From NCBI GenBank assembly GCA_946499505.1, contig CAMMSL010000011.1:1-32000 (forward strand): a stretch of 32,000 nt of DNA. Direction: 5' to 3'. Position 1 is the stretch's first letter; every line of letters begins with the position of its first letter. Made by a program: the position numbers and the translations under genes. Under the pieces are notes generated by a model, which worked only from the letters and a program-made list of their open reading frames with translations, was not told where the DNA came from and searched no databases. This DNA is from an uncultured Lachnoclostridium sp. Lineage in GTDB: Bacteria; Bacillota; Clostridia; Lachnospirales; Lachnospiraceae. This document shows positions 3,796-18,087 of this stretch, one piece after another.

Positions 3796-4668
3796 ATGAA
3801 AAAAATTATAGTATTTATTAGTATGATGCTTGTAATAGCAATGAGTACAACAGCATGTTCAGGAACAAAAGAAACATCAAAAAAAGAAGTGTTGAATGTC
3901 GCATTGCTTCCTGATGAGTCACCGGCTGAGGTTATTAAAAATAATGAGAAATTGAAAGAGTATCTTAGTGAAACACTTGATATGGAAATTAATCTTATTG
4001 TAACAACAGATTATTCTTCTATGATTGAAGGAATGAGAAAAGGACATATTGATATAGGGTATTTTGGCCCACTTTCCTATGTTCTTTTGAAACAAAAGAT
4101 GGAGAATGTAGAGCCTTTTGCAGCTAAATTGGAAAATGGAAAACCAACTTATAGAGGAGTTGTTATTGGAAATGTTGCAGCAGGAGTGAAACAGTTAAGT
4201 GATATTGAGGGCAAAACAATGGCATATGGAGATGTTGCATCTACCTCAAGTCATCTTATTCCAAAAGAATTATTGCTTACAAAAGCGGGATTAAAGGCTG
4301 GTGAAGATTATGAAGAACAATTCTTAGGAGCGCATGATGCGGTAGCAATTGCAGTGCAAAATGGAAATGCACAGGCAGGAGGTCTTAGTAAACCAATTTA
4401 TGAGAAGCTGATTGAAGAAGGAATGATTGATGAAAATAAGGTACAGGTCATTGATGAATCTGATGACTATCCAAACTACCCATGGGCAATATGTACAGAT
4501 TTAGATCAAGATCTTCAGGAAAAAATTAAAAATGCATTTTATAATCTTGATGACGAGGAAATTCTTGAGAGTTTAAAGGCAGAAGGATTTGCAAAAATAG
4601 AAGATTCTGATTATGACATTATTCGTAATATGGTTGAACTTCTAGATGTAGATTTGGAGGATATGTAA
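3796..4668 (+). CDS. phnD: Phosphite/phosphonate ABC transporter substrate-binding protein (PhnD/PtxB-type), probable lipoprotein
   Basis: It has a signal peptide with Cys (MKKIIVFISMMLVIAMSTTAC), the PhnD-like core GHIDIGYFGPLSY, and a position between the ATPase and the permease. Confidence 0.85.
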   Translation: MKKIIVFISMMLVIAMSTTACSGTKETSKKEVLNVALLPDESPAEVIKNNEKLKEYLSETLDMEINLIVTTDYSSMIEGMRKGHIDIGYFGPLSYVLLKQKMENVEPFAAKLENGKPTYRGVVIGNVAAGVKQLSDIEGKTMAYGDVASTSSHLIPKELLLTKAGLKAGEDYEEQFLGAHDAVAIAVQNGNAQAGGLSKPIYEKLIEEGMIDENKVQVIDESDDYPNYPWAICTDLDQDLQEKIKNAFYNLDDEEILESLKAEGFAKIEDSDYDIIRNMVELLDVDLEDM

Positions 4669-5460
4669 ATGAAACAAGAGAAAAAGAAAAAACAAGATAA
4701 AACATTATCTATCTGTGCCTTAATTGGTGCAATTATCATAATTTTTTCTCTGATTTATACACCAATAGTGAGTTGGGAAAATCTGACCACTGGAAATATA
4801 CTTATGAATTTTGTTGGAATGATAGGCGAAATGATCCCACCAGATTTTTCCTCCATACAAGAATTGGGAACGCCTATTGTCGAGACACTTGTAATGAGTG
4901 TAGTTGCAACAATTCTTGCAGTTATTATAGCTTTTCCATTAAGCTTTTTAGCTGCACATAATATTACACCACATTCAATAATTGGAACGATTGTAAAAGC
5001 ATTTTTCAGCGCACTGCGTTCAATTCCGGAACTTATTATGGGTGTAATATTTGTTGCAGCAGCAGGCTTTGGGATTTTGCCGGGAATTCTTGCTTTGGGA
5101 TTTCATTCTATAGGAATGCTTGGAAAATTTTATGCGGAGGCAATAGAAAAAACGGATGCAGGATTGAATGAGGCTATTTCTGCATGTGGTGGATCAAAAT
5201 TTCATGTAATTATATTTAGTGTAATACCGCAGATTTTTTCCCACAGTATTGATTATTCCTTATATCGATGGGAATACAATTTCAGAGCTTCAACAGTAGT
5301 TGGGCTTATAGGAGCTGGAGGAGTCGGATTTCAGATTATAGCAGCACTCAGATTGATACAATATAAAAAGATATGCGCTATTTTAATTGTTGTATTTGCT
5401 CTGGTACAGCTTGTGGATTTCTTTGGAAATGTTATAAGAAAGCATCTTATAGACGCATAG
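4669..5460 (+). CDS. phnE: Phosphite/phosphonate ABC transporter permease (PhnE/PtxC-type)
   Basis: It is a polytopic membrane protein. Its start codon directly abuts the stop of the binding-protein gene. The PhnE-like segment is ALRSIPELIMGVIF…GAGGVGF. Confidence 0.85.
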   Translation: MKQEKKKKQDKTLSICALIGAIIIIFSLIYTPIVSWENLTTGNILMNFVGMIGEMIPPDFSSIQELGTPIVETLVMSVVATILAVIIAFPLSFLAAHNITPHSIIGTIVKAFFSALRSIPELIMGVIFVAAAGFGILPGILALGFHSIGMLGKFYAEAIEKTDAGLNEAISACGGSKFHVIIFSVIPQIFSHSIDYSLYRWEYNFRASTVVGLIGAGGVGFQIIAALRLIQYKKICAILIVVFALVQLVDFFGNVIRKHLIDA

Positions 5461-5486
5461 AATATTATAAAGGAGAATAGTTTTAA

Positions 5487-6491
5487 ATGGATAACAGACC
5501 ACAAATATTAATTACGGGATGGATGCCGAAGGAAGGAAGAGATATATTAGAAGAATACTGCGATTTGGATTTTTGTAACTCAGAAAAGCCACTTAGTAAG
5601 ACTGAGTTAATACAACGAGCAAAGAATAAAGACGGAGTTGTCATTTTTATGACAGATACAATAGACAAGGAAGTTATTCAGGCATGTAATAACCTTAAAG
5701 TGATTAGCAGTTTTGGAAAGGGCTTTGATAATATTGATGTGGAGGAGTGTGCAAAGAGGGGAATTGCAGTAACAATTAATAAAAATTCTCTGACCGAAGA
5801 TACTGCAGACATGGCAATGGGACTTGCACTTGCAAATGCAAGAAACATTTTAATTGGAGACAGTGAAGTAAGGAAGGGGACGACTAGAGGGTGGCAGCCT
5901 AAAAAAAATTTGGGAAGGAGTTTTAATCATTCTAATTTAGGAATTATTGGTTATGGAGAAATTGGCAAAGCAATAGCAAAGAGAGCGAAAGGTTTTTCCA
6001 TGACGACATACTATTATGACCCTACTGTTGAATCAGTATCATGGGGGGCACATAAATGTGAAAAACTTGAAGAAATGTTTTCTAAATGCGATTTTATTAT
6101 GATAACCGCAAATTTGAATAAAAACAGTTACCATTTAGTCAACAGGGATAACATAAGTTATATGAAACAAGGTGCCTTTGTTGTTAATGTTGCCAGAGGT
6201 TCGATTGTTGATGAAAAAGCTATAGAGGAAGCGCTTGATGCAAATAAAATTTCAGGATATGCTTCTGATGTGTTTGCTTTTGAGGATAAACTAGCTAAAG
6301 AATGTCCGCAATACATTAGTAGCGGATTGCTTGAAAAAACAGAAAAAACAGTGTTTACTCCTCATTTAGGAACCGGAACTGTAGAGACAAGAAAAGAGTT
6401 ATCAATATCTACAGCCAAGGGAATGCTGTCAGTGTTAAAGGGAGAAGAAACAGAACAGTTGATTACTTCTGGAGAAGCTAATATGAACTAA
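5487..6491 (+). CDS. ptxD: NAD-dependent phosphite dehydrogenase (PtxD-like, D-2-hydroxyacid dehydrogenase family)
   Basis: From memory of P. stutzeri PtxD, these motifs align. KGFDNIDVEECAKRG matches KGFDNFDVDACTARG. GWQPKK matches GWQPQF (Trp134). NVARGSIVDE matches NPCRGSVVDE (Arg237). GYASDVFAFED matches GYAADVFEMED (Glu266). FTPHLGTGTVETR matches FTPHIGSAVRAVR (His292, Arg301). It is also linked to phnCDE plus LysR, as in ptxABCDE. Confidence 0.8.
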   Translation: MDNRPQILITGWMPKEGRDILEEYCDLDFCNSEKPLSKTELIQRAKNKDGVVIFMTDTIDKEVIQACNNLKVISSFGKGFDNIDVEECAKRGIAVTINKNSLTEDTADMAMGLALANARNILIGDSEVRKGTTRGWQPKKNLGRSFNHSNLGIIGYGEIGKAIAKRAKGFSMTTYYYDPTVESVSWGAHKCEKLEEMFSKCDFIMITANLNKNSYHLVNRDNISYMKQGAFVVNVARGSIVDEKAIEEALDANKISGYASDVFAFEDKLAKECPQYISSGLLEKTEKTVFTPHLGTGTVETRKELSISTAKGMLSVLKGEETEQLITSGEANMN

Positions 6492-6590
6492 TACATATGT
6501 ATGAAAATATCTATAATAAAACATTATACCACGTGACATATATTATATATTATATCTTATTCGTATAATGTGTATATATGAGTATAGTAT

Positions 6591-6638
6591 CGGAGATGTT
6601 CCAAAGACCTAAAAAGTTTTTGAACATTTCCGATTTTT
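6591..6638 (+). terminator. Rho-independent terminator of the phosphite operon
   Basis: cggagatgttc (6591-6601) pairs with gaacatttccg (6622-6632) with one G-U pair, followed by ATTTTT. Confidence 0.6.
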
Positions 6639-6681
6639 AATTACCCAAAATATGTTGAATTTATTTGTTTTGGCACTTGAT

Positions 6682-6710
6682 TTGACATCTGTCTTGTCAG
6701 ATGCTATAAT
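6682..6710 (+). promoter_or_regulatory. Perfect consensus sigma-A/sigma-70 promoter with no downstream ORF
   Basis: TTGACA (6682-6687), an exact 17-nt spacer, then TATAAT (6705-6710). The spacer contains the palindrome CATCTG-N6-CAGATG. Confidence 0.7.
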
Positions 6711-7011
6711 GCCACCTAATGAAAACACGAAAGGGAAATACCGGTTCTTATATAATGCGAAAGATGGTTTTATATTTTAGATAAATTGCAAGAGCCAGAA
6801 CCGAAATATAACGGTTAAGTGATAGCATATCCGGTGAAGGTATTAGAATATGAATGATAAGATAGCACGTATTAAACAGCTTAAAGAAGCCTGCAAATAA
6901 AAAGTCAAGGCTAAATTAAAAGAACATTGAAAAATTTATACAGGTTGAAAAATTGGCATCACAATAAGACCACCACAATAGTGCTGGTCAAAAAATAGGT
7001 GATAAATTTAA

Positions 7012-7545
7012 TTAGTTTGATTCAGGGAGTGAGGCAAGATATTCTTTTACACGCCCATAGTAGATACGAAGAAATTTGTTCGCACCAGCTGTCATATAGA
7101 CATAATAAGGTTTTCCTTGTGCTCGTTTTTTATCAAGGAATAAATATACAGCATCGTCTGTCGGTTTTGTTTTGATAAGAACATCCATTACCTGAAAGAG
7201 AGTTTTTCGCAAATCAGCAGAGCCTCTTTTAGAAGTTGGTACACTTTTCTGAGCATAAGATCCAGATTCATTTACACCAGGATCCACACCCGCAAATGCA
7301 GTAAGGGCACCTTTATGAGTGAATCTAGAAACATCACCTATCTCGGCTATTAGTTGAGGACCCAAAGAAGGACCGACACCTTTCATAGCCATAACGATTG
7401 GATATTCAGGTAGTTTTGCTGCTGTATGATCCATAAGCGTGCGTAACTCTTCGACAGTGCTTGATGCAGAGTTGAGTTGGTCTATCGCTTGTTTAATAAT
7501 GAGTTTAGTCAAATCATCCTTAGGAAGTACAGGAACGAGACCGTT
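7012..7545 (-). pseudogene. IS110-family transposase, C-terminal (Transposase_20) fragment only; 5' part removed at the IS256 boundary
   Basis: …MAMKGVGPSLGPQLIAEIGDVSRFTHKGALTAFAGVDPGVNESG…KRGSADLRKTLF… is the typical IS110 C-terminal domain. The N-terminal DEDD domain is missing. The frame is open up to nt 7545, directly against the IS256 inverted repeat. Confidence 0.85.
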
Positions 7546-7546
7546 T

Positions 7547-9015
7547 CAAGTTTTGTGTAAACTGAAAAAACTGATATAAGATATGTCATTAGTTACTTTA
7601 GGCAGAGCCAATTTTTTGAGGTTCTGCCCTTTCTTGTATTATAATGCAGTTCCCAGACATGTCAAGCAGGGCTGGCTAACCCAGCCCTCCTAGACGGGAA
7701 ACTGCTTATAATCCGGATAGCCTTTCTTCAAAGAAAATCTCCAGCTGCGAATGGATCTGTCCCCAATCTTGTCGGTGGCCTGTCCATTTTTTCGTGATAT
7801 CCATCATGGCCAGATACAGCATTTTTAAAAGACTCTCATCGGAAGGGAACACTGTCTTGGATTTTGTGACTTTCCGGAGCTGGCGGTTAAATCCCTCAAT
7901 TGCATTGGTAGTATAGATCAGACGGCGTACCGCTTCCGGGTACTTAAAATAAGTCGAAAGATTCGCCCAGTTATCTTTCCAGGATTTCGCTATTTTCGGG
8001 TATTTTCCGCTCCATTTGTCATCAAAACTGTCCAGCTCTGCTAATGCGATTTCTTCTGTTGGAGCCGCATATACACGTTTTAGATCAGCCATCAGGGGCT
8101 TGATCTCCTTATAGGAAACGAACTTCGTTGTATTCCGGATCTGATGAATGATGCATTGCTGGATTTCTGTCTGAGGAAATACCGCCTCGATTGCCTGAGG
8201 AAATCCTGTCAGCCCATCCACACATGCAATCAGGATATCTTCTACCCCGCGGTTCCTTAGCCCGTTCAAAATGGAAAGCCAGAATTTCGCGCTTTCGTTT
8301 TGGCCCACATACATGCCAAGCACGTCTTTATGTCCTTCCATGTCAATCCCAATGGCGATATAAACCGCACGTTTTACAATCCGGCCTTCATTGCGCACAT
8401 GGTAATGGATGGCGTCCATGAAAACCACGGCATAAATCTCTTCCAATGGCCTTTCCTGCCATTCTTTCACAATGGGAAGAATCTTATCAGTGATCCGGCT
8501 GATGGTGCTGTCAGAGATTTCGATGTCGTATAGTTCACGCATATGGCTTTCAATATCATTCGTGGTCATTCCTTTGGCATACATAGAGATGATCTTTTCC
8601 TCCATGTCCTGAGTGACAGTATTCTGGTATTTCTTGACAATCTGCGGTTCAAACTCGCCTTTCCTGTCCCTGGGGATGTCGATTTCCATGTCTCCATAGC
8701 TGGTATGCATTGTTTTCTGAGAATGTCCATTTCTGGAATTATCCGTTTCCTTGTTACGATAATCATACTTAGAATAGCCTAATTCCTCGTCAATCTCCTG
8801 GTCCAGAGCACCTTCCAGAATGATGGACATCATATCCCGCATGATGGAGTTAACATCTGTCCCATCTTTGACTTTAACATTGTTTTCTTTCATGTAGTTG
8901 CCCATCATTTCTCGAAGAGCTGCTTTTTGTGGGGTATCCTTTTTCCTTGCCATAAAATAAACCTCCAAACTGGTAAGTCTATCTTACATCAGTTTGAAGG
9001 TTTACACAAACTTTG
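7547..9015 (-). mobile_element. IS256-family insertion sequence (~1.47 kb) with imperfect terminal inverted repeats
   Basis: The left end caagttttgtgtaaactgaaaaaactgat matches the reverse complement of the right end (ccaaagtttgtgtaaaccttcaaactgatg). It encloses a complete IS256-type transposase. The boundaries are approximate to a few nt. Confidence 0.8.
7706..8953 (-). CDS. IS256-family (Mutator-type) transposase
   Basis: The product MARKKDTPQKAALREMM…DEELGYSKYDYRNKETDNSRNGHSQKT…MYAKGMTTNDIESHM…VFMDAIHYHVR…ACVDGLTGFPQAIEAVFP…QQCIIHQIRN… is characteristic. GGAGG lies 8 nt upstream of the ATG at 8953. Confidence 0.95.
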   Translation of the reverse strand: MARKKDTPQKAALREMMGNYMKENNVKVKDGTDVNSIMRDMMSIILEGALDQEIDEELGYSKYDYRNKETDNSRNGHSQKTMHTSYGDMEIDIPRDRKGEFEPQIVKKYQNTVTQDMEEKIISMYAKGMTTNDIESHMRELYDIEISDSTISRITDKILPIVKEWQERPLEEIYAVVFMDAIHYHVRNEGRIVKRAVYIAIGIDMEGHKDVLGMYVGQNESAKFWLSILNGLRNRGVEDILIACVDGLTGFPQAIEAVFPQTEIQQCIIHQIRNTTKFVSYKEIKPLMADLKRVYAAPTEEIALAELDSFDDKWSGKYPKIAKSWKDNWANLSTYFKYPEAVRRLIYTTNAIEGFNRQLRKVTKSKTVFPSDESLLKMLYLAMMDITKKWTGHRQDWGQIHSQLEIFFEERLSGL

Positions 9016-9198
9016 GGATACTCCCATTTTAGCCATTTTTCGCAAAATATCTTCCCTTGGCTTCCTTTCCCCGGATTCGTATTGAGCGATACGGATATCA
9101 GCGGAGTTCTCGGAAAAGCCGAGTGCAAGACCAAGCTGCTTCTGTGTAAGATGATTTTTGTTTCTTAAGTGCTTAATTTTTTCTCCAAAAGTGATCAT
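9016..9198 (-). pseudogene. XRE-family HTH regulator, 3' end truncated by IS256 (the tail of ORF 8989-9198 is read from the IS inverted repeat)
   Basis: KIKHLRNKNHLTQKQLGLALGFSENSADIRIAQYESGERKP is a Cro/C1-type HTH. The last ~8 codons (QSLCKPSN) lie inside the IS256 right inverted repeat. Confidence 0.75.
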
Positions 9199-9279
9199 AA
9201 TAATAATTCTCCTCTCTGTGTGTTGTGTATTGGTTGGTATTAAGATGCCGATATATACGGCGTCTCTGATTGTAAAAGT

Positions 9280-9693
9280 TTATTTTCCAGTACTGCCAAA
9301 GGCTCCGGTGCCACGTTCAGTGCCAAGATCCAGTACAAAATCGGCAATAATCACAGGAGTGATGACCAGCTGGCCAATTCGGGTATCCTTCTTGATTGTC
9401 TGCCGGATATTGCTTACATTGCTGACAATGGCATGGATTTCACCACGATATCCGGAATCGATGGGCGGCAGTTCGCATACCAGACCTTTGACGGCCAGGC
9501 TGCTCCTGGGAAACACATATCCTGCGTATCCGTCAGGGATTTCCAGTCCAAATCCCAGTGGTATTTTTATGATATCACCGGGGTTCAGAGTACAGTCAAA
9601 GGGAACATATACATCCGCTCCGGCATCATTTTCATGAGGTCGGAAGGGACAATGTTCTTTGGAGACTCCAAAATCAATCAGTCGTATTTTCAT
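9280..9693 (-). CDS. dut: dUTP diphosphatase (trimeric dUTPase)
   Basis: All five dUTPase motifs are present: DAGADVY, PRSSLAVKG, IDSGYRGE, RIGQLVI and RGTGAFGSTG. Confidence 0.95.
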   Translation of the reverse strand: MKIRLIDFGVSKEHCPFRPHENDAGADVYVPFDCTLNPGDIIKIPLGFGLEIPDGYAGYVFPRSSLAVKGLVCELPPIDSGYRGEIHAIVSNVSNIRQTIKKDTRIGQLVITPVIIADFVLDLGTERGTGAFGSTGK

Positions 9694-10457
9694 GAGAGTT
9701 CACCTCCCATGAGAAGCGGATAATCCCGTAAGATAATATCAGCCGGAGTAAGGGATCGTTCAAGAGGATTTCTGCAACTCATTTTTCCTTCCAGGCATTT
9801 TCCACGTTGGCAGAATGGACCTGTCAGTTCCGGAAGAAAAAGTACCGGGCTTAAATCATACAGATCCTTCCAAATATTCAGGATCACGATTCTCATTTCA
9901 TCCGTGTTGCGTCTGCAGGAACGCTGCCCGATCATATGTTTCCACTGGTAAGGGGTCGCACTGATAAGCAGAACATTTCTTAACCCCTGTGGTGTCAGAT
10001 ATCCTGCCGAGTCGTGGCTGATGCCGGTTTTGCAGAGGCGCTCATAATTATCCATATCGGTCTGGCAGCTTTTTTCATATAATTCTTTGATAGCCGCCGG
10101 TGCGGTGAGGATCTCATAGGGTATTGCGAAATCTGCTTCCCCGGAATAGTTGCTGTACTGGAGGGATGCGCTCATGAATTTTACCTCATTCTGGTGCCGG
10201 GTGATCTGGGAAAGAAATCTCCGGCTGGCGCCTACTACAGCTACTGTAATCACGGCAAATTTCTGTATGGCAGGATGCGGGAGTTGTCCCATATTTTTTA
10301 CGGTATCATTAGTAAAGGACTGATTGTACAGTCGGATCAGATCTTCCATGTTGTGGATCAGATGCCCGCGCTGTGTCAGCCTGGCTGCAAATACCATCGT
10401 CTTTTCAGCTTCGCTAACGGCGGAGCAGTTCAGGATTTTTGTTTCAATTCTGTTCAT
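9690..10457 (-). CDS. thyX: ThyX-like FAD-dependent thymidylate synthase homologue with a divergent signature motif
   Basis: HPAIQKFAVITVAVVGASRRFLSQITRHQ…SASLQY occupies the position of the ThyX RHR…SxRY motif. AGYLTPQGLRNVLLISATPYQWKHMIGQRSCRR…EMR and GPFCQRGKCLEGKMSC match ThyX C-terminal features. It has an ATGA overlap with dut. Confidence 0.8.
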   Translation of the reverse strand: MNRIETKILNCSAVSEAEKTMVFAARLTQRGHLIHNMEDLIRLYNQSFTNDTVKNMGQLPHPAIQKFAVITVAVVGASRRFLSQITRHQNEVKFMSASLQYSNYSGEADFAIPYEILTAPAAIKELYEKSCQTDMDNYERLCKTGISHDSAGYLTPQGLRNVLLISATPYQWKHMIGQRSCRRNTDEMRIVILNIWKDLYDLSPVLFLPELTGPFCQRGKCLEGKMSCRNPLERSLTPADIILRDYPLLMGGELS

Positions 10458-10770
10458 AAGTACCCTCCTCTTTGATGATCGCTGCCAGCAGGAAGAGATA
10501 GTTCAGGCTGTCGGTGATCTTCTCATCCCATAATTCTTTTGTGAAGGAAGTATTCTTGGCATAACACATATCATATAAAGATACGATATGTTTTGCCATC
10601 ATCCCGACAAGAGCCCGCTGGGGCGTGCAGTCCTGAAGAGAAGCGGCGATCCGGAAAGCGCTGAGTCTGTCTTCGCGGTCGCCGGTATATTCTTTTTTCT
10701 TCATCCGTAATGTTTCTTCGCATTTATTGACCTGATCTGCAAAGATCAGTCTAAATTCTGATTGTGTCAT
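10444..10770 (-). CDS. DUF1599 / all-alpha MazG-like (nucleotide-modification-associated type) small protein
   Basis: KKKEYTGDREDRLSAFRIAASLQDCTPQRALVGMMAKHIVSLYDM…EKITDSLNYLFLLAAIIKEE fits the pattern I remember for this family (…DYG…D.LSNFR…G…KL.RL…E…D…NY..LL). This is a motif-level call only. Confidence 0.5.
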   Translation of the reverse strand: MTQSEFRLIFADQVNKCEETLRMKKKEYTGDREDRLSAFRIAASLQDCTPQRALVGMMAKHIVSLYDMCYAKNTSFTKELWDEKITDSLNYLFLLAAIIKEEGTYEQN

Positions 10771-12422
10771 AATGATTCTTCTTTCCTTTCTTTCTGTGAG
10801 TTGTGATGTGCTGCTGATTGAATGGGAACTTTTTCTGTCTCCATTGCCGTTCTGTCAAGAATGGCATCTACGTTATAGGAAACAGTCTCCAGTTCTGTGC
10901 AGCGGCTTCTTAGTTCTTGTAATGCCTGTTTCTGGGAACTGATTTTATCCTGCAGGTTCTGTTTGCGGGATTTTAATGATTTCATTGAAAGCATTTTCCC
11001 GTCAGTATAGAAGCTTTTCAGCCAGTCCCTGGCCTGTTCATATGCCTGCAGTTCAGAAGCATGCTCACTGCGGAATTTCTTTTTGCTTCTGGATCGTATG
11101 AATTCTGTATATGTTCCTTTAGATGAAAAGTACTGTCCTGTGTAGTGAATCTGCGAATTTAATGTCTTCAATTCTGCAGAGAGTTCATCTAAACTTTCTT
11201 GTGCCTCATTCAGTTTTGCACTTGCCTCCGATATGATCCTGGACAGGTTTTCTCTGGTGTCATAACCATGTTCCTGAATATAGATCAGGGTATTCGCCAT
11301 TTGCTGCAGATTGGTGATCTTAACTTTACGGGCATAAGCTTCACTCTGCATAGCTTTAACATTTGTCTGCAAATCAACCACAAGACGTAGATGTGTCCGA
11401 TAGTAGAAGATAGCAGTTGGATCTTTGTGGTAATCGCCATGGACAGAATGATGTGTAGTTGTTCTGTGTTCTGGCTGGATCCCATTATCGTTTTGGAGAA
11501 ATCTCTTTTCCAGGTGTTCCATGCCATAGTCTGTTCCCAGTGCTTTTTCAGTGATCCTGAGATCACGATCCGGATGCAGATATCTATATCTTCCTCTTTG
11601 CAAAATCACGGATATATTGTAATTTTCCAGAAGAAGAGATTGAAACTCTTTAAAATTTCTGGCTGATCCAGAGCATTCATCAATCGCCTTCCGGAGAAAA
11701 TCCTTCTTTGTCTGGAATGTTGTGGCCGTTGGTTTGAGACCTTTCTGTACAATTTCCTGATTAATCTGTTCCAGTTTTTTCTGTCCTCTGGTTATTGCAC
11801 GAAACTCTGCTTCTGTCACTTTTTCCGGAGCAGGAGAAAGAAGATCAACCTGATGTAGTCCTTCCCGCTCACACATGGCCATGACTTCCTTTTTCAGATG
11901 TTCCAGAAATCGGTTTGTGGACCGATGCTTATAGCCGGCCTTTTCTTCATTTGGCTTATCCATATAGTTCTGGCGTGCCACGGCATTTTTGCGGACACTG
12001 TTGATCACGATATGGGTATGGATGTTGCCGGAATGGTTTCCGCCGTCTGTGTGGGTAACCACCACCGCCTGATAGCCTGGGAAATTCTTTTTTGCAAATT
12101 CCAGGCAAAGCTCCTGTGCCCTTTTCCCAGTAAGCCCACATTCCGATACGTCCGCTGGATCGAAACTGATGATGTAATGGTGACTTTTTAATTCGTTTCG
12201 CCTGCGGTTTTTCTTAAATGCTTCATTTGTCATTCTGCATTCAATATCAAATGTATCAGGATTACAGTTGAGCCCGTCCAGATAGAATTCATCCCGGAGA
12301 ATTTTCTGTCCCAGTTCATTTTGAAGCATCTTGCCGGTTTTCTCATCATGCTGAAACAGCAGATACTCCATTGTGTCAGAATAATTGGCGTTATGACTTT
12401 TTATGTGTTTGATAACTGCCAA
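10767..12422 (-). CDS. Mobilization relaxase (MobA/VirD2-type, Relaxase/mobilisation nuclease domain) with a long coiled-coil C-terminus
   Basis: The histidine triad is HTDGGNHSGNIHTHIVINS, and HHYIISF lies upstream. I place the start at the TTG at 12422 (MAVIKHIKS…), 5 nt after AGGTGA; the ORF track starts at 12482. Confidence 0.9.
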   Translation of the reverse strand: MAVIKHIKSHNANYSDTMEYLLFQHDEKTGKMLQNELGQKILRDEFYLDGLNCNPDTFDIECRMTNEAFKKNRRRNELKSHHYIISFDPADVSECGLTGKRAQELCLEFAKKNFPGYQAVVVTHTDGGNHSGNIHTHIVINSVRKNAVARQNYMDKPNEEKAGYKHRSTNRFLEHLKKEVMAMCEREGLHQVDLLSPAPEKVTEAEFRAITRGQKKLEQINQEIVQKGLKPTATTFQTKKDFLRKAIDECSGSARNFKEFQSLLLENYNISVILQRGRYRYLHPDRDLRITEKALGTDYGMEHLEKRFLQNDNGIQPEHRTTTHHSVHGDYHKDPTAIFYYRTHLRLVVDLQTNVKAMQSEAYARKVKITNLQQMANTLIYIQEHGYDTRENLSRIISEASAKLNEAQESLDELSAELKTLNSQIHYTGQYFSSKGTYTEFIRSRSKKKFRSEHASELQAYEQARDWLKSFYTDGKMLSMKSLKSRKQNLQDKISSQKQALQELRSRCTELETVSYNVDAILDRTAMETEKVPIQSAAHHNSQKERKEESL

Positions 12423-12786
12423 TATAATCACCTGCCAATCGAAGCACTTCTTTCCGCAGCGCATAAAGTTCTGCAATTGCACGTTCTATCTCCTCCTGCA
12501 TGGCAAGAGAGCGTTCCCCACCACTGTTAAAATGCCTGGCGATCTGGTTCAGGTTGGATCCGATTTTCCCATATTGTGCGAGAAGTGATTTGACCTCCTC
12601 GCTGTCAATTACAATCTGGTATTTCGGAGTCAGTTTCCTGTTTAAGATCACGTTCCGGATGAAGTCTGATCTTGTCATCCTGCATTTTTCAGCCCGGTCA
12701 TCTAATACAGATAGTTCTATATCCGTCAACCGGAGGCAGATGATGTGTGTGCGTAGCTGTTCATTATTCTTTTTGATCTTTTTCAT
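12391..12786 (-). CDS. mobC: MobC-type relaxosome accessory protein
   Basis: The RHH-like N-terminus is LRLTDIELSVLDDRAEKCRMTRSDFIRNVIL and the MobC motif is GKIGSNLNQIARHFN. It lies directly upstream of the relaxase and overlaps it by 32 nt. The RBS is GGAAGGAGGAG. Confidence 0.9.
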   Translation of the reverse strand: MKKIKKNNEQLRTHIICLRLTDIELSVLDDRAEKCRMTRSDFIRNVILNRKLTPKYQIVIDSEEVKSLLAQYGKIGSNLNQIARHFNSGGERSLAMQEEIERAIAELYALRKEVLRLAGDYIGSYQTHKKS

Positions 12787-12836
12787 ACTCCTCCTTCCAC
12801 TGCGTGATAAATGGAGCCGCCAACAGCGGTGCCATT

Positions 12837-12897
12837 CACTGAAATGCCGGCTGTCCCTTCCGGATAGATTTCAGTGCTGCGCCCAACATTCTGTTGG
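12837..12897. other. Candidate oriT (inverted repeats upstream of mobC)
   Basis: cactgaaat (12837-12845) pairs with atttcagtg (12868-12876). It is followed at once by ctgcgccc, then ccaaca-ttc-tgttgg (12883-12897). A further hairpin atgggga/tccccat lies at 12967-12987. Confidence 0.45.
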
Positions 12898-13267
12898 AAG
12901 CCAATATAATTCCGATACATTTTTGATCACTGCTGGATAAAGAAATGTATGGGAATTGCCGAGGGTATGGGGAAACGGAATCCCCATCAAGAGCCCGACC
13001 ACGGAGAATGCAAAAGTCAGAAAATCTGCTTTTGTATTACGGGGTGGATCTTGCTCTTTGAAAATTCAAACCCTCTCATTAATAGAAACGAAAAGGGCTT
13101 GTTTTACAGTGTGGATCATGAAAAATTTCAAATTATTTTTTATTTGGACTGTCAAAAATAATCAAAAAAAGCTAATCACAGACGCTGTAAAATTCCCCGA
13201 TTTCCTTTCTATATATGAAGAGGCTAATATCATGGCCCTTCGTATTAATGAATGGAAAGAGGTATGC

Positions 13268-13453
13268 ATGATGGCAGAGAAAAGGTGTTACACAGTAGCA
13301 GAATTACAGGAAATTCTTGGAGTCAGCCGACCGACAGTTTACAGCCTTCTGAAAAGAAATGAATTTCGCTGGATCCAGTTGGACGGCGGAAAGTACCGGA
13401 TCTCCAAGAAAAGTTTTGACGACTGGCTGGATAAACAGCCTTCTGAAGAATAA
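13268..13453 (+). CDS. Excisionase-like HTH_17 (MerR-superfamily) DNA-binding protein
   Basis: YTVAELQEILGVSRPTVYSLLKRNEFRWIQLDGGKYRISKKSFDDWLD. The start is uncertain: ATGs at 13232, 13268 and 13271 each follow a purine-rich RBS. The upstream part of ORF 12956-13453 looks non-coding. Confidence 0.75.
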   Translation: MMAEKRCYTVAELQEILGVSRPTVYSLLKRNEFRWIQLDGGKYRISKKSFDDWLDKQPSEE

Positions 13454-13536
13454 TTTCCATATGAAAAAAGTTCATCGACATAGTAACGCTATTCTTATAT
13501 TTCCGTTATCCTTTCAGCAGGAAGGGAGAATTGATT

Positions 13537-14532
13537 ATGAATAAAAAGGAAGAATGGATGAAAGAAGAATACCAGGATATGATCGAGGCCATTGAATCCC
13601 ATAGTCCATACAAAAGAAAACCATCTCCTCAAAAGAAATGGATGAGTGTAGCGGAAATGGGAGAACTGTTAGGACTTAAGAAGACGGATCGGTACTGGCT
13701 TCTTCATAAGAATGTATTTGAGTCCAGAGAGATTGCCGGCAAGCTGCGGGTCAATATTGCCAGTTTTGAAAAGTGGTATGCCAATCAGGTGAAATATCAG
13801 AAAGTGACCGGGGAAGAGCCGGGACTGGAATTAAAAGAATGGTCCTTTTCTGTACGTGATATTGCGCAGCTTTTGGAAATTGAAGAAAGCGTTGCCTATG
13901 ACCTGATTAAAAGGGAAAAGCTTGAGACAGTTACGATCGATTACTGGAAGCGGATACCGAAAGATGTATTTTGGAATTGGTACAACGGACAGACGAAGTA
14001 TCAGACAGCTGAGGATCGTAAAGCAAAGAGAGAATTATATGAGGCAACCATCAGTATGCCGGATATGGCGAGACTGCTTGGTGTTAGCAGAGGAACTGTT
14101 TATACTTTGCTGAAAAGCAGAAAATATGGAAAATATTTTTCTACAGTTATTATTGCTGATCAGAAACGGATCACAAAAGAAAGCTTCCAGAAATTTCTTG
14201 ATGAGCAGGATGAGTATCAGTTGTCACCCTGCAATGATTATAAAGAACTTGCTATGGAAGAAAATATAGCATTGGCGAATTACCGACGAAAGAAACTTTT
14301 GCAGACCGGAGATCGGAGATGTAATGGGAATCTTAATTATCTGACTCCGGAAGAAGCAGCACTGATGGCAAAGGTTTCAAGATCCATGATTGTAAACTGG
14401 TACCAGAGGGAAGAATTTCCAATCATACATATTGGAAACCGGGTACGGATCTGCAGAAAAGAGTTTGAAGCATGGCTGGAAGAAAGGAGAAAGAAGAATG
14501 GCGTCCATACAGGAACGAAACCACAAGTATAA
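13537..14532 (+). CDS. Protein made of four tandem excisionase-like HTH_17 repeats
   Basis: Four ~75-aa units each read W/Y-x-S/T-…-A-x-LLG…-Y-…-I-…-F-x-x-W, for example WMSVAEMGELLGLKKTDRYWLL…FEKWY. The other three are WSFSVRDIAQLLEIEESVAYDLI…FWNWY, ISMPDMARLLGVSRGTVYTLL…FQKFL and YLTPEEAALMAKVSRSMIVNWY…FEAWL. The ATG at 13537 lies 8 nt after GGGAG. Confidence 0.8.
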   Translation: MNKKEEWMKEEYQDMIEAIESHSPYKRKPSPQKKWMSVAEMGELLGLKKTDRYWLLHKNVFESREIAGKLRVNIASFEKWYANQVKYQKVTGEEPGLELKEWSFSVRDIAQLLEIEESVAYDLIKREKLETVTIDYWKRIPKDVFWNWYNGQTKYQTAEDRKAKRELYEATISMPDMARLLGVSRGTVYTLLKSRKYGKYFSTVIIADQKRITKESFQKFLDEQDEYQLSPCNDYKELAMEENIALANYRRKKLLQTGDRRCNGNLNYLTPEEAALMAKVSRSMIVNWYQREEFPIIHIGNRVRICRKEFEAWLEERRKKNGVHTGTKPQV

Positions 14533-15898
14533 AGTGGTCTATTATTATAAGAATGATGCGGGCGAAAGAAAGCAAAAATGGGAAACATATGATACAAAGG
14601 CGGAAGCCCGCAAACGCAAGAAGGAAATTGAGTATAAGCAGGAGTTAGGAACATTTGTTGCACCTAAGTGTACCTACCTGTCGGATCTTCTCGATGAATA
14701 TGTTTTTATTTATGGAACAAAAGCCTGGGTAATGTCTACATATCAGGGAAAAGTTGGCCTGATCAGGAATTATATCAAGCCGATGATAGGTAAAGTGAAA
14801 CTTTCGGATTTGAATACGCATTTTATAGAAAAATACTATCAGACACTTTTGGAGACACCGGCTGTTGTCAATCCGATGACCAAAAAACCAAAAAGCGAGT
14901 ATGTTACAACAGGAACGATACGGGAGATTCACAAGCTGCTCCGCAACTGCTTTGAGCAGGCAATTAAATGGGAACTGATGGAGAAAAATCCCTGCCAGCG
15001 GGCGACTGTTCCTAAACATACGCCTAAAAAGCGCGAGATATGGGAAGCAGACACTATGATGCACGCAATGGATGTATGTGTTGATGAGAGAGTTGTCCTG
15101 GCCTGTAATATTATTTTTGCCGGTACACTCCGTCCCGGCGAGGTCACGGCGCTTTCCTGGGACGCTATGGATATTTCCATGGAAGCGATTGATGAGGATC
15201 GGGCTTATATCGTTATCAATAAAGAATTGCAGAGAGTAAGTAAGGAGGCTTTGAAAGCATTGGATGGAAAAGATGTACTCCTTGTATTTCCAGAAACCAG
15301 AAAATCCAACAAAACAGTCCGTATTTTAAAAAAGCCAAAAACAGAAGGCAGCGAAAGAAAAGTTTTCATCCCGCGAACTGTGGCGCTTATGCTTGTCGAG
15401 TGGAAGAAGAAACAGGATCTGGAAAAAGAAGTAATGGGGGATGAATATATGGACTATAACCTGGTACTGGCAACCCCCTATGGACTTCCTGTCGGTGAAG
15501 ATGTGATCTTGAATGGATTGAAGAAACTTATTGCTGAAAACAATCTGCCTTCTGTAGTTACACACAGCCTCCGGCATACCAGCGTTACTTATAAGCTGAA
15601 GCTGAATGGTGGTGATATCAAGGCTACGCAGGGAGATTCCGGTCATTCCCAGGCCAATATGATCCTGAATGTTTATTCTCATATCCTGGATGATGACAGG
15701 AGGAAAAATGCAAAACTTTTTGAAAAAGCATTTTATGAAAAGAAAGAACTTGATCCGGATATCCACCAGAAGATGCCGGAGAATATGCTGCAGGTGCCAG
15801 AGGGAGTGGATCCGGAATTGCTTGGAAAAGTGCTGGCTGACCCGGAGATGGCTGCGCTGCTGGTATCGATGGCATCAAAAATGAACAGTAAAGTGTGA
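14498..15898 (+). CDS. Tyrosine recombinase / site-specific integrase
   Basis: The N-terminal arm-binding type sequence is MASIQERNHKYKVVYYY…. The catalytic region contains RPGEV, HSLRHTSVTY and GHSQANMILNVYSHI (the final Tyr). The ATG at 14498 lies 8 nt after AAGGAG and overlaps the end of the 4xHTH gene by 35 nt. Confidence 0.92.
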   Translation: MASIQERNHKYKVVYYYKNDAGERKQKWETYDTKAEARKRKKEIEYKQELGTFVAPKCTYLSDLLDEYVFIYGTKAWVMSTYQGKVGLIRNYIKPMIGKVKLSDLNTHFIEKYYQTLLETPAVVNPMTKKPKSEYVTTGTIREIHKLLRNCFEQAIKWELMEKNPCQRATVPKHTPKKREIWEADTMMHAMDVCVDERVVLACNIIFAGTLRPGEVTALSWDAMDISMEAIDEDRAYIVINKELQRVSKEALKALDGKDVLLVFPETRKSNKTVRILKKPKTEGSERKVFIPRTVALMLVEWKKKQDLEKEVMGDEYMDYNLVLATPYGLPVGEDVILNGLKKLIAENNLPSVVTHSLRHTSVTYKLKLNGGDIKATQGDSGHSQANMILNVYSHILDDDRRKNAKLFEKAFYEKKELDPDIHQKMPENMLQVPEGVDPELLGKVLADPEMAALLVSMASKMNSKV

Positions 15899-16007
15899 TC
15901 AAGATAGACACGGAATCTGTATTTGCTTATAATGAAAGTATTAGTTTGAGTTATTTTTGTTTGTTGATTTTTTAGAAAGAAGATCAACAGAAAAATGGAG
16001 GTATGTT

Positions 16008-16448
16008 ATGCTGAGCATCTATCTGGGGCAAATGGAAGAGGCAATCTATTATCCGCCTGCTTATTTTAATAATACGTATGATGATGAGTGGATCACAGAT
16101 CCCCTGACTGTAGAAATGATAAAAGATGTAGATAAATCAGAAGTCATCGGTCCTCATCTTATAGAGAGTCCTGTATTGGGCCCGATTTCTGTAAAAGAGA
16201 TATCAGGCGGTGTAAAAACATTGATCTTGATGGCTTTTGATGATTCAGGAAGAATTTTTAATGCATCCGCTTGTGGCAACAATTGTGCGAAATGGATTCT
16301 GGAAATCGGAAAAAGGAAGGATCTGACAATTAATCTGCGGCATATTATGAATTTTGGAAAAGAGCCTTTTGAAATCAAAATTCTTAACAATGGGGAAATG
16401 GTTCAGGATCTTGATCGTTTTATAGCGGTGGCCGCTAAGTACGTGTAG
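16008..16448 (+). CDS. DUF4869-like small protein (146 aa), function unknown
   Basis: The sequence MLSIYLGQMEEAIYYPPAYFNNTYDDEWITD…EISGGVKTLILMAFDDSGRIFNASACGNNCAKWILEI…LTINLRH matches my recollection of DUF4869 proteins. The ATG at 16008 lies 6 nt after GGAGG; the ORF track starts at 15957. Confidence 0.6.
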   Translation: MLSIYLGQMEEAIYYPPAYFNNTYDDEWITDPLTVEMIKDVDKSEVIGPHLIESPVLGPISVKEISGGVKTLILMAFDDSGRIFNASACGNNCAKWILEIGKRKDLTINLRHIMNFGKEPFEIKILNNGEMVQDLDRFIAVAAKYV

Positions 16449-16456
16449 GTGAGAAG

Positions 16457-16915
16457 ATGACGGGAAAGCATAAGATTATTGTAAAAAACAACAGGCTTTA
16501 TTACGAGCTTGAAATAGAAGAAAAAATAACCATAATCCGTGGAGACAGTGCAACAGGAAAAACAACACTCATTGATATGATATGGCAGGCACGGCATTAT
16601 GAAGATTCCAGCGGAATAGAGCTGATCAGTGAAGTCCCATGCAAAGTATTGTACAGGGATAACTGGAAGTGGTCTGTGGAGGAGGCAGCAGATACTATAT
16701 TTTTTATTGATGACGGAAATGTTTTTGTCACTACAGAAGAGTTCGCGGATGCTGTAAAAAGAAGCGACAGTTATTTTGTCATTGTTATCAGAGAAAATCT
16801 GTATCATCTTCCGTATAGCACAGATGAAATATATGGGCTGCGCTGTTCCGGACGATATCGTGACACAAAAAGGATGTATCAGCAGATGTATCGGCTGGGT
16901 CCGGCGGAAACTTAG
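16457..16915 (+). CDS. Minimal P-loop NTPase (152 aa) with an ABC/SMC-head-like N-terminus
   Basis: A beta-strand lead-in KIIVKNNRLYYELEIEEKITIIRG precedes Walker A GDSATGKTT. A Walker-B-like TIFFIDDG and then YFVIVIRE follow. The RBS is AGGTGAG. The gap to the upstream gene is 8 nt. Confidence 0.65.
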   Translation: MTGKHKIIVKNNRLYYELEIEEKITIIRGDSATGKTTLIDMIWQARHYEDSSGIELISEVPCKVLYRDNWKWSVEEAADTIFFIDDGNVFVTTEEFADAVKRSDSYFVIVIRENLYHLPYSTDEIYGLRCSGRYRDTKRMYQQMYRLGPAET

Positions 16916-17068
16916 AATTGCGCTTTAATATAAATACAGTAAATCACGTAGATGAAGCATCTTAAAGAGTCAAGCAGAGGATGTGTCTTATGGATATGAG
17001 TTTCAGATAAATTATGACGATACAAAAAAGCCTATATTTCGTTCAGACAGATATCAGTCACGGTGGTG

Positions 17069-17303
17069 ATGTCAAATCTGAATTATGATGTCCCCCAGGA
17101 TGTCCCTCAGAATGTCCCCCAGGATAATATGGAGGATCAGATTATTGGCTTAATTCAAAAACAACAAGATGAGCACAGAAAAGATGGCTATGATTTTAGG
17201 CGTGAGTTCTAAGACGGTAAAACGCCGTATAAAACAAATGGATCACGTAAATTATATTGGACGGGGATCAAATGGCCATTGGGAGATTTCAGAGGAGAAG
17301 TGA
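17069..17303 (+). pseudogene. C-terminal remnant of an AlbA_2/'putative DNA-binding' type ATP-binding regulator: DVPQ repeats plus a wHTH, frameshifted
   Basis: MSNLNYDVPQDVPQNVPQDNMEDQIIGLIQK is in one frame. It continues as NNKMSTEKMAMILGVSSKTVKRRIKQMDHVNYIGRGSNGHWEI in another frame after the A5 run at 17157-17161. The large N-terminal domains of such proteins are absent. Confidence 0.6.
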
Positions 17304-17354
17304 TAGTTCACTTTTTAGATCAACTCCAACCTCTTTTTTGTTATTCTTTATAAT

Positions 17355-17684
17355 TTGAATTATAATGTTCCAGAAAAAGAGGTGTTAGTTGATCCGGAAA
17401 AGGTGTTAATTGATCCGAAAAAAGCGTTAATTGATTTGGAAAATATATCAATTCGTAATGCTATTGATAAACTGAATGCGAATCAGGCCACCAAAGAAAA
17501 AGCTAATCTTCTGTTTGAGAAAATGGGATTTGATAAGATTTTTGGAAGAAAAGAGATTATGGAAAATATTAATATCTCTATAACTGCGGCTGGGAACCTT
17601 TTGAACCATTTAAAAAATGCAGGATTAATTAAAACAGTCAAAGGATTTGGAAAAGGGAAATATCAATTTGTAAGACAAGAATGA
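17355..17684 (+). CDS. Small wHTH protein or fragment (tail typical of Fic/AlbA_2-associated regulators) with three 7-aa peptide repeats
   Basis: VLVDPEK/VLIDPKK/ALIDLEN is encoded by three 21-nt tandem units (17382-17444). The C-terminus is …FGRKEIMENINISITAAGNLLNHLKNAGLIKTVKGFGKGKYQF. It has a TTG start and no clear RBS, so it may be a remnant. Confidence 0.45.
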   Translation: MNYNVPEKEVLVDPEKVLIDPKKALIDLENISIRNAIDKLNANQATKEKANLLFEKMGFDKIFGRKEIMENINISITAAGNLLNHLKNAGLIKTVKGFGKGKYQFVRQE

Positions 17685-17993
17685 AGTAGTCGAAAAAACA
17701 TAGACAAACTGACCATTACACGGTATAGTATAGATAGTAAATCTGATCAATTGAATATTGTATATCATTCCTGCTAAGATGGGCATGGTAGCCGATCCTT
17801 TAGGAAGCCGTTGACAGTAAGCCGAACACCTTTTATTAGCCGCAGCCAATATCCGGCTAATATCCACCGGTTGTTCCGGGTTTACAGTGGCTGACAGCAA
17901 TTGACCAGAAACGATTTGAACTGTAGTAAAAGACCTTTTATTGCGAGCCTTGCGTGAACTGAACATGACTTAGATTGACAGTGGTCAGGAGAC

Positions 17994-18035
17994 CTCCTAA
18001 GCGGAAGGCCGGCGGTTCGAATCCGCCCAGGAACG
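17994..18035 (+). other. 3' half of a tRNA-Arg(CCU) gene (anticodon loop to discriminator); candidate attR core. No 5' half is present
   Basis: The parts read CTCCTAA (anticodon loop, anticodon CCT), GCGGA, AGGCC, GGCGG-TTCGAAT-CCGCC (T arm), CAGGAAC (acceptor 3' strand) and G. The upstream bases (…GAGAC) cannot pair with GCGGA. No GTTCCTG acceptor 5' strand lies within 90 nt. Confidence 0.7.
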
Positions 18036-18040
18036 TAACC

Positions 18041-18087
18041 GAGAAGCCGAAAATTTCTTGAAATAATATCAAGATTTTCGGCTTCTC
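18041..18087 (+). terminator. Long perfect hairpin immediately 3' of the tRNA fragment (native tRNA terminator-like)
   Basis: gagaagccgaaaat (18041-18054) pairs perfectly with attttcggcttctc (18074-18087), and an inner cttga/tcaag stem is present. Only a short T run follows. Confidence 0.55.

Follow-up and report, generated by a model that had tools for sequence, protein, structure and literature searches.

Relation to described systems

Among the described systems closest to the gene pair analysed here are the OLD-family ABC (ATP-binding cassette) ATPase-Toprim nucleases and related defence systems, which include Gabija GajA, PARIS AriA/AriB, Septu PtuA/PtuB and the effector of retron Ec78. 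The pair lies in a 32,000-nucleotide stretch of DNA (the window) from an uncultured Lachnoclostridium species (contig CAMMSL010000011.1 of assembly GCA_946499505.1), near the right end of an integrative mobilizable element, and consists of gene 1, which encodes a DUF4869 protein, and gene 2, which encodes a short P-loop protein (Table 1). Gene 2 shares the ABC-type β-hairpin and Walker A motif with the OLD-type proteins, and its best sub-threshold hidden Markov model matches are LmuB, AriA, PtuA and GajA; PtuA chains are also found among the structural matches of DUF4869. The likeness further extends to the domain order, in which an ATPase precedes a β-α-β domain where acidic residues cluster, and to the occurrence as a small, mobile and patchily distributed module. 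In contrast to OLD-type systems, the pair carries its signature motif on a separate polypeptide that has no P-loop, it has no dimerisation insert, and for gene 2 no PADLOC, Pfam or NCBIfam model reaches threshold. Neither sequence nor Foldseek identifies the C-terminal domain (C-domain) of longer gene 2 homologues as Toprim or DUF4435, and the copy in the window does not have a C-domain.

Asymmetric ABC heterodimers such as TAP1/TAP2, TM287/288 and BmrCD resemble the proposed heterodimer in having one consensus composite site, with Walker A and LSGG contributed by different subunits, and a second, dead site. The Foldseek matches of DUF4869 include BmrCD and further heterodimeric exporters. However, subunits of the TAP1/TAP2 type are complete nucleotide-binding domains (NBDs) with point degeneracy, whereas the pair, whose heterodimer is putative, has lost whole elements (the P-loop and ABC-β in DUF4869, the helical/signature subdomain in the partner) and is without membrane domains. 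Rad50/SMC heads, assembled from N- and C-terminal halves, likewise place Walker A and signature on different polypeptide segments, and the MukB head and Rad50/SbcC-like proteins are among the fold matches of DUF4869. Unlike these, the pair has no coiled coil, and DUF4869, which folds autonomously in its model and is without the Walker B acidic residues, is not simply a missing half. Type II toxin-antitoxin (TA) modules are compatible with the pair in organisation only: both of its small genes point the same way, and its distribution is patchy with frequent decay. The Pfam family DUF4869 (PF16163), to which gene 1 belongs over its full length, has an entry that carries no function; a literature search on DUF4869 or PF16163 returned no papers, and neither its link to a P-loop partner nor its ABC-like nature turned up in any library or paper searched.

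From these comparisons and the family-wide evidence below, we place at about even chances the reading that the two proteins make up a heteromeric ATPase of the ABC-like kind, with a single composite ATP site, and probably serve as a conflict (defence, exclusion or addiction) module, of which the window holds an effector-less short form.

A recurrent pair of DUF4869 and P-loop genes

Scanning one genome per species with a DUF4869 alignment gave at least 587 matches, of which 80 loci with 83 DUF4869 copies were kept. The hosts are mostly Lachnospiraceae, and also include Oscillospiraceae, Negativicutes, Coriobacteriia and a Duodenibacillus. On the 3' side of DUF4869 the partner gene is intact in 53 of the 83 copies, split by a frameshift or stop in six, truncated in 16 and absent in seven, and in one the contig ends. 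A recognisable partner thus follows 75 of the 82 assessable copies (~91%). The two families look like obligate neighbours across genomes, in keeping with the link between the two genes drawn by an earlier reading of the window from its letters alone (the sequence-only reading).

The arrangement is also close-set. Every gene 2 homologue examined at 51-63% identity has a DUF4869 gene 3-10 nt on its 5' side, and the intergenic spacing is 3-15 nt across all contexts examined. Four of these contexts are unrelated to one another: a region like an integrative and conjugative element with an HD-CE/HATPase_c_3 gene, a LytTR/DUF3021 locus, a locus where PDDEXK_2 lies next to the pair, and a site immediately behind BREX PglX-PglZ. 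Clustering at 90% identity gives 5333 clusters of DUF4869 and at least 6390 of the partner, and one natural fusion, with DUF4869 followed by the P-loop domain (P0263), occurs among 1.8 billion representatives. In tandem arrays every DUF4869 groups with its own partner. The recurrence of the pair and the conserved positions of its motifs are far beyond chance. Phage and plasmid records contain almost no copies of the pair, and one detached DUF4869 at 38% identity has a divergent partner homologue 2 kb upstream, among HEPN, AbiEii and DUF3990 genes.

We note several loci that hold more than one copy of the module. In L103-L108 (positions 4599-6960) a short pair (145 + 152 amino acids, aa) and a full pair (146 + 319 aa) stand 40 nt apart behind an integrase and a Fic gene, and their tandem DUF4869 copies are 56% identical. 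Three copies of the module are found in L035 and two in L061.

In the window the two genes are co-directional and 8 nt apart, and both have purine-rich ribosome-binding sites (GGAGG ~7 nt 5' of the ATG of gene 1, AGGTGAG upstream of gene 2). The sequence-only reading described two small linked open reading frames (ORFs), each with its own ribosome-binding site, and these are confirmed; the motifs that it quoted for both genes are all present, most of them at conserved family positions. Its view that the pair could be assigned to no named system also stands, since the pair matches nothing in Pfam beyond the DUF label, and nothing in PADLOC, NCBIfam, the PDB or the literature. Searches of Pfam, PADLOC, NCBIfam and PHROGs returned no family for gene 2, the full-length partner or the C-domain (including member-by-member scans with 27 C-domains), and PDB sequence searches with single proteins and family profiles gave no relative of either gene beyond generic P-loop matches. 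A pair that abounds in gut Firmicutes, with copies in at least 587 species genomes, is annotated only by its DUF label or as hypothetical, the PGAP labels being 'DUF4869 domain-containing protein' for gene 1 and 'hypothetical protein' for gene 2.

DUF4869 keeps a signature motif and has no P-loop

Gene 1 matches the DUF4869 profile end to end (profile positions 1-127 of 128; 193.5 bits against a gathering threshold of 28.9; E=1.4e-57). In a 45-sequence alignment of the family, S66 of an LSGG motif is invariant, and G68, K70, C89, G90, N92, C93 and D105 are at least 90% conserved. The signature of the window protein reads ISGG (residues 65-68), with a helix at 67-77 in the AlphaFold2 (AF2) model, and further motifs are IFNAS at the Walker B position, CGNNC and LTINLRH. 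Walker A (GxxxxGK[ST]) is absent from gene 1 and from the 45-sequence alignment, and a Walker B of the form hhhhDE with a catalytic glutamate is missing from gene 1, where N-A replaces D-E in the aligned strand IFNAS. The earlier description of gene 1 as a protein without Walker A and with an LSGG-like helix is thus extended to the family, in which the P-loop is absent and the LSGG serine invariant.

The AF2 model of DUF4869, built from the same alignment, is of high confidence (predicted local distance difference test, pLDDT, 98.1; predicted template modelling score, pTM, 0.92). Among its 50 top Foldseek matches in the PDB, 48 are ABC-class ATPases (transporter NBDs, PtuA and the MukB head) and the other two are Csn2, all of them weak (best E=4e-3, none below 1e-3, query TM-scores of 0.28-0.43). 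In BFVD, an independent viral library, 13 of the 17 top matches are ABC-F proteins, ABC transporters, OLD-like endonucleases, SbcC/Rad50 or SMC. Aligned by hhalign to an NBD profile of 286 columns, which was built from fetched loci, DUF4869 covers 127 columns with a probability of 20% and E=1e-3 (NBD columns 83-234 of 286). In this register its LSGG falls on the NBD signature motif, IFNAS on the Walker B position, CGDNC on the D-loop region and INLxH on the H-loop.

The suggestion that gene 1 is ABC-like is therefore borne out in part: the LSGG motif and the ABC-class fold matches speak for it, whereas the matches are weak and the IFNAS and INLRH register depends mostly on the LSGG block. With moderate confidence, we describe DUF4869 as an NBD-like domain in reduced form, with no P-loop and with an intact signature. 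A paralogous relation between DUF4869 and its partner was also considered and rejected (hhalign probability of 0.8%).

The P-loop partner and its C-terminal domain

Gene 2 carries the ABC-type β-hairpin with Walker A GDSATGKT (residues 29-36), followed by FFIDD (82-86) and VIVIRE (108-113). GDSATGKT and W70 are conserved in its family, and R112 of VIVIRE is invariant. The N-terminal domain (N-domain) aligns to the NBD profile with a probability of 96% (E=4e-9) over β1-β3, Walker A and the following strands. Its sub-threshold matches, which cover residues 5-45 only, are AAA_15, AAA_23, AAA_29 and ABC_ATPase in addition to LmuB, AriA, PtuA and GajA. Both results agree with the SMC/ABC-head-like N-terminus that had been read from the sequence. 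Gene 2 was also correctly read as having no signature: LSGGQ is absent, no other LSGG-like motif was found, and the sole candidate is a conserved SGKY at 131-134, which reads SGRY in the window and which the alignment does not place on the NBD signature.

The stretch TIFFIDDG, proposed as Walker-B-like, aligns in two different ways. The acidic motif is conserved in the family as FIDE (IxFIDE), and weak AAA/STAND-type Pfam matches align it as Walker B, whereas the NBD profile places it on the Q-loop strand. R112 and E113 follow the next strand, and no histidine is present. E86 of this motif is invariant in all 53 full-length N-domains, and among 14 short forms it deviates only in the window (D) and in L001 (N); the window protein also has I at the near-invariant T111. 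With these changes, the short-form lineage of the window may bind ATP yet hydrolyse it poorly. We further note that the most conserved stretch of the ATPase (LPYSV.EIYG..SGKY....Y..Y.IY; residues 113-151 of P0473, ~113-147 of window gene 2) has the lowest confidence in the partner model (pLDDT 28-42); its folding may depend on contact with DUF4869 or on oligomerisation.

Partners most often measure 319-335 aa and consist of a ~150-residue ATPase domain followed by a C-domain of ~170 residues. Motifs of invariant residues in the C-domain are PE.IIVEDSNSGYEFF, C.SA.GKSN, VIADGAAFG, LPESFEW and SWE, with an invariant acidic/lysine set of E164, D165, K190, D210, E237 and E240, and in the model it forms a β-α-β-α-β-α-β unit (pLDDT 80-94). 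By this pattern and by analogy with OLD-type proteins, the C-domain may be a Toprim-like metal-dependent effector. Window gene 2 aligns to residues 1-147 of the full-length partner and then ends, and tblastn with 43 full-length partners finds no C-domain remnant anywhere in the 32-kb window. The sequence-only reading missed that the window protein is not complete for its family and corresponds to the N-terminal ~150 residues of a ~320-aa protein: its length marks it as a short form and does not make the family a minimal one.

Other partner variants were seen. In P0173, P0165 and P0182 (241-243 aa) a clean internal deletion joins PIKPE to SFEW, so that the core of the C-domain is gone and its helical tail kept; P0173 alone is present on 55 contigs. 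In P0391 (446 aa) a stretch of ~125 residues is repeated in tandem within the protein (ALWKGQL…GKSNVF twice), either an assembly artefact or a real duplication. A C-domain that continues the NBD, with IIVED as its Walker B, is not supported, as the C-domain alone matches the NBD profile with a probability of 0.5%; this idea is kept only as the improbable split-domain alternative below.

Short forms are under purifying selection

In a neighbour-joining tree of N-domains the short forms are polyphyletic, and two of their clades are old: the window with L001 (63% identity), and the L103 with the L035 short forms. Comparison with L109/L111 within the window clade, where dS is unsaturated (0.41-0.66), gives gene 2 a ratio of nonsynonymous to synonymous substitution rates (dN/dS) of 0.20-0.23 and gene 1 one of 0.10-0.125; in the L103/L035 clade the values are 0.10 and 0.06. 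Over short-form lineages down to 63% identity, gene 2 gives 0.20-0.27 and gene 1 ~0.10. The median for N-domains is 0.17 between short forms and 0.32 between full-length forms (pairs with usable dS, n=6 each, indicative only), and DUF4869 is more constrained than its partner in every comparison. The short forms are under purifying selection and are not simply dead.

Proposed mechanism and alternatives

As a heteromeric ABC-like ATPase the pair would work as follows. DUF4869 would be a reduced relative of the ABC NBD in which the P-loop and the Walker B acidic residues are gone and LSGG is kept, and gene 2 its complementary subunit, with the ABC-type hairpin, Walker A and an invariant acidic motif (FIDE, here FIDD) and no signature. 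The two proteins would form a head-to-tail ABC-like heterodimer in which LSGG of DUF4869 closes over ATP on the P-loop of the partner, giving one composite ATP site. In the canonical partner of ~320 aa this ATP switch would be fused to the candidate Toprim-like metal-dependent effector, and the whole unit may behave as a small, horizontally mobile conflict module. Because its effector domain is lost and its E86 is changed to D, the window copy probably keeps only the ATP-dependent interaction of DUF4869 with the partner. Taken as a whole, these features suit a selfish or conflict module of small size, namely an autonomous two-gene islet that is patchy, multi-copy, often decayed, and selected when intact.

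Several results weigh against this reading. In the shuffle control the real hhalign score of DUF4869 against the NBD profile is 29.5, compared with 27 +/- 3 for shuffles of 12-column blocks and 13 +/- 2 for column shuffles; since block shuffles score as high as the real alignment, the LSGG block alone is statistically secure, and the collinear register is not. The C-domain has no match in Pfam, PADLOC, the PDB or the NBD profile, and its E164/D165 and D210-G-A fit no Toprim, DUF4435 or OLD model or structure, so that its Toprim-like reading comes from a motif pattern only, namely acidic residues at strand ends (E164/D165, D210, E237/E240), and from the OLD-type analogy. The AF2 model of the full-length partner P0473 is mediocre (pLDDT 74, pTM 0.55, with the P-loop and residues 113-151 below 50, low values that the absence of a binding partner might explain); Foldseek of this model, which returned generic flavodoxin-like or receiver-like folds only, is for that reason uninformative. 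Solo DUF4869 genes also occur (L116/L117; L116 4001-4492): they are 38% identical, have LSGG intact and have no partner within 4 kb. Such distant proteins without an adjacent partner suggest that DUF4869 may act alone or in trans. The solo gene of L116 shares 7 nt with an overlapping DpnD/PcfM gene, and after it come five small ORFs, HipA_C and RNase H, an arrangement that looks like the leading region of a conjugative element.

The surroundings of the family count against the reading as well. The 136 immediate neighbours in 80 genomes match 181 Pfam families, which are mostly housekeeping (tRNA-binding proteins, aminotransferases, tRNA synthetases, GNATs). Only two of the 136 are integrases, and few are of defence type (a methyltransferase, a type I S subunit, PDC-S26, SoFic, mad3 and HEC-07). 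Enrichment beside integrases or defence islands, as suggested from the position of the pair, is therefore not supported, and a defence role is not established by context. Clearly mobile or defensive contexts do occur, such as the position directly after BREX, the integrase-Fic block with tandem pairs, and PemK, AAA_15 and AbiEii neighbours. A search of PADLOC-DB v2.0.0 matched DUF4869 to 0 families and the partner only within residues 5-45 or through occasional partial alignments (best LmuB, E=4e-7); in line with the earlier view of the pair as unassigned, no named system (Lamassu, PARIS, Septu, Gabija or the PDC/HEC candidates) is matched over its full length.

Some of these features can be read in other ways. 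The intact LSGG of solo DUF4869, beside DpnD/PcfM in a leading-region-like cluster, would suit an inhibitor or antitoxin, a role that we hold to be unlikely, in which DUF4869 is a P-loop-less NBD decoy that caps the ATP site of the partner and silences its effector in a TA-like or anti-defence manner; short pairs and solo DUF4869 on mobile elements would then neutralise resident full-length systems. A small upstream gene followed by a larger downstream one resembles type II TA organisation, the module is patchy, multi-copy and often decayed, and both the retention of LSGG in a protein without any catalytic residue and the change of the invariant E86 in the window clade fit a decoy. A short and a full pair side by side in one element are odd for a same-family inhibitor, however, and the stronger constraint on DUF4869 than on its partner is unusual, though possible, for an antitoxin. 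The window pair could also be a hitch-hiking remnant, broken and functionless and abundant through a successful mobile element. The 22 of 83 family loci (27%) that are split or truncated fit frequent decay, which weighs against the heteromeric reading too, and the missing C-domain, the E86D and T111I changes at otherwise conserved sites and the decay just 3' of the pair (an AlbA_2 remnant and frameshifted helix-turn-helix ORFs) point the same way. This is nevertheless quite improbable in view of the selection on short forms, where dN/dS (0.20-0.27 for gene 2, ~0.10 for gene 1) is no weaker than between full-length copies and falls to 0.06-0.10 in the independent L103/L035 clade, and of the intact ORFs, ribosome-binding sites and 8-nt spacing of the window pair.

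The complementary motifs of the two proteins may instead reflect a single split domain, as with the Rad50 halves. The N-half in gene 2 (Walker A and Q-loop strand) and the C-half in DUF4869 (signature, Walker-B-like strand and H-loop) would together make one NBD-like fold, with IIVED of the full-length partner as its own Walker B. The strand order of partner residues 1-85 matches NBD β1-β6, hhalign puts FIDE on the Q-loop strand and DUF4869 on NBD columns 83-234 of 286, and a permissive full-length alignment pairs IIVEDSNSGYEFF with Walker B/D-loop and ADGAAIG with the C-terminal hairpin. We regard this as very unlikely, given that the C-domain alone reaches a probability of 0.5% against the NBD profile and DUF4869 0.8% against partner residues 100-277, that DUF4869 folds confidently alone in its model, that weak AAA/STAND-type matches align FIDE as Walker B, and that recurrent truncation at ~residue 150 suggests a domain boundary there.

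If the heteromeric reading is correct, nature would here have taken the ABC ATP sandwich apart in minimal form, placing Walker A and signature on separate, stripped-down subunits, and the heterodimer would be a new architecture among ABC/OLD-type conflict systems (PARIS, Septu, Gabija). The repeated and selected loss of the effector domain on mobile elements offers a concrete way to test how the control or subversion of such systems works. A bolder possibility, which we rate as a long shot, is a new ABC-based conflict system of complementary stubs, one subunit having only the signature and the other only the P-loop, joined to an orphan effector domain. The signature-only subunit would be a trans-acting cap or decoy on the ATP site, and effector-less short pairs and solo DUF4869 on mobilizable or conjugative elements would be counter-defence decoys aimed at resident full-length systems.

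Carrier element and surrounding sequence

The element that carries the pair is found as near-identical copies (97.8-100% nt identity) in eight chromosomal flanks. Its gene order is HTH_3, dUTPase, ThyX, relaxase, MobC/NikA, two HTH_17 genes, the tyrosine integrase, DUF4869, the 152-aa protein and a 109-aa ORF. The exact gene 2 protein of the window is present in 1528 blocks of the assembly collection, and the eight places shown are the same ~9 kb block. In comparisons with the window by blastn, the left boundary is at 9026 and the right boundary at 17996-18003 in four insertions, at 18024 in two and at 18086 in two. These shared boundaries place the pair as cargo between the integrase and the right end, as the sequence-only reading had it, with the pair in the last 2 kb of the block. 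The thyX gene and the dUTPase/dCTP-deaminase gene are unusual cargo for such an element.

Table 1. Features of the window around the DUF4869 gene pair
Feature	Coordinates	Strand	Basis
Integrative mobilizable element, ~9 kb	9026..18003	.	Same block in eight different flanks; blastn boundaries
Tyrosine integrase, 466 aa in identical copies	14498..15898	+	ORF list; Pfam Phage_integrase on identical gene, L095-L102
Promoter-like site TAGACA-17-TATAAT (predicted)	15905..15933	+	11/12 consensus matches; spacer between integrase and gene 1
Gene 1, DUF4869 protein, 146 aa	16008..16448	+	ATG 16008, TAG 16446-16448; ORF list; Pfam PF16163
Gene 2, short form, 152 aa, ATPase N-domain only	16457..16915	+	ATG 16457, TAG 16913-16915
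Decayed region downstream of the pair	16939..17684	+	372-nt replacement segment; blastn breakpoints 16939 and 17311
109-aa ORF, C-terminal remnant of AlbA_2/HATPase_c_4 protein	17355-17684	+	tblastn, L109 496-aa protein

The promoter-like site upstream of gene 1 comes from a consensus scan, and its function is predicted. At the other end of the cargo, the tRNA-Arg fragment that had been proposed to mark the end of the element is not called by ARAGORN or Rfam, and is tRNA-like by eye only: positions 17990-18030 resemble a piece of tRNA from the anticodon loop to the 3' end (CCT anticodon context, GGTTCGAATCC T-loop), and element homology ends inside it at 17996-18003. No direct att repeats of at least 14 nt were found.

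The region 3' of the pair can be compared with the closely related L109/L111 element, which is 86% identical at the nucleotide level over the integrase-to-pair region and carries a short form of 158 aa, followed after 21 nt by the start of a 496-aa AlbA_2/HATPase_c_4 gene. Residues 375-489 of the 496-aa protein of L109 match window positions 17334-17678 (94% identity), and positions 16939-17311 of the window replace ~1.1 kb of this gene. Within the replacement, two overlapping ORFs at 17063-17303 look like one frameshifted gene with a C-terminal helix-turn-helix (…KMAMILGVSSKTVKRRIKQM…); in front of it are three 12-nt tandem repeats (17088-17125) that code for D/N-V-P-Q. Three 21-nt tandem repeats at 17378-17443, at the start of the 109-aa ORF, encode VLVDPEK, VLIDPKK and ALIDLEN (family D1).

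On the left, insertion-sequence material (6962-9025) abuts the element. It includes a Transposase_20-like ORF (7012-7512) shared with L095, and a 420-aa ORF (7706-8968) in a 1.5 kb segment that is absent from L095 and shared with L102, where a Transposase_mut gene sits. In L109, another DUF4869 gene begins ~110 nt beyond the element's right end (L109 5929-6066); it is 75% identical to window gene 1 at the nucleotide level and cut by the contig end.

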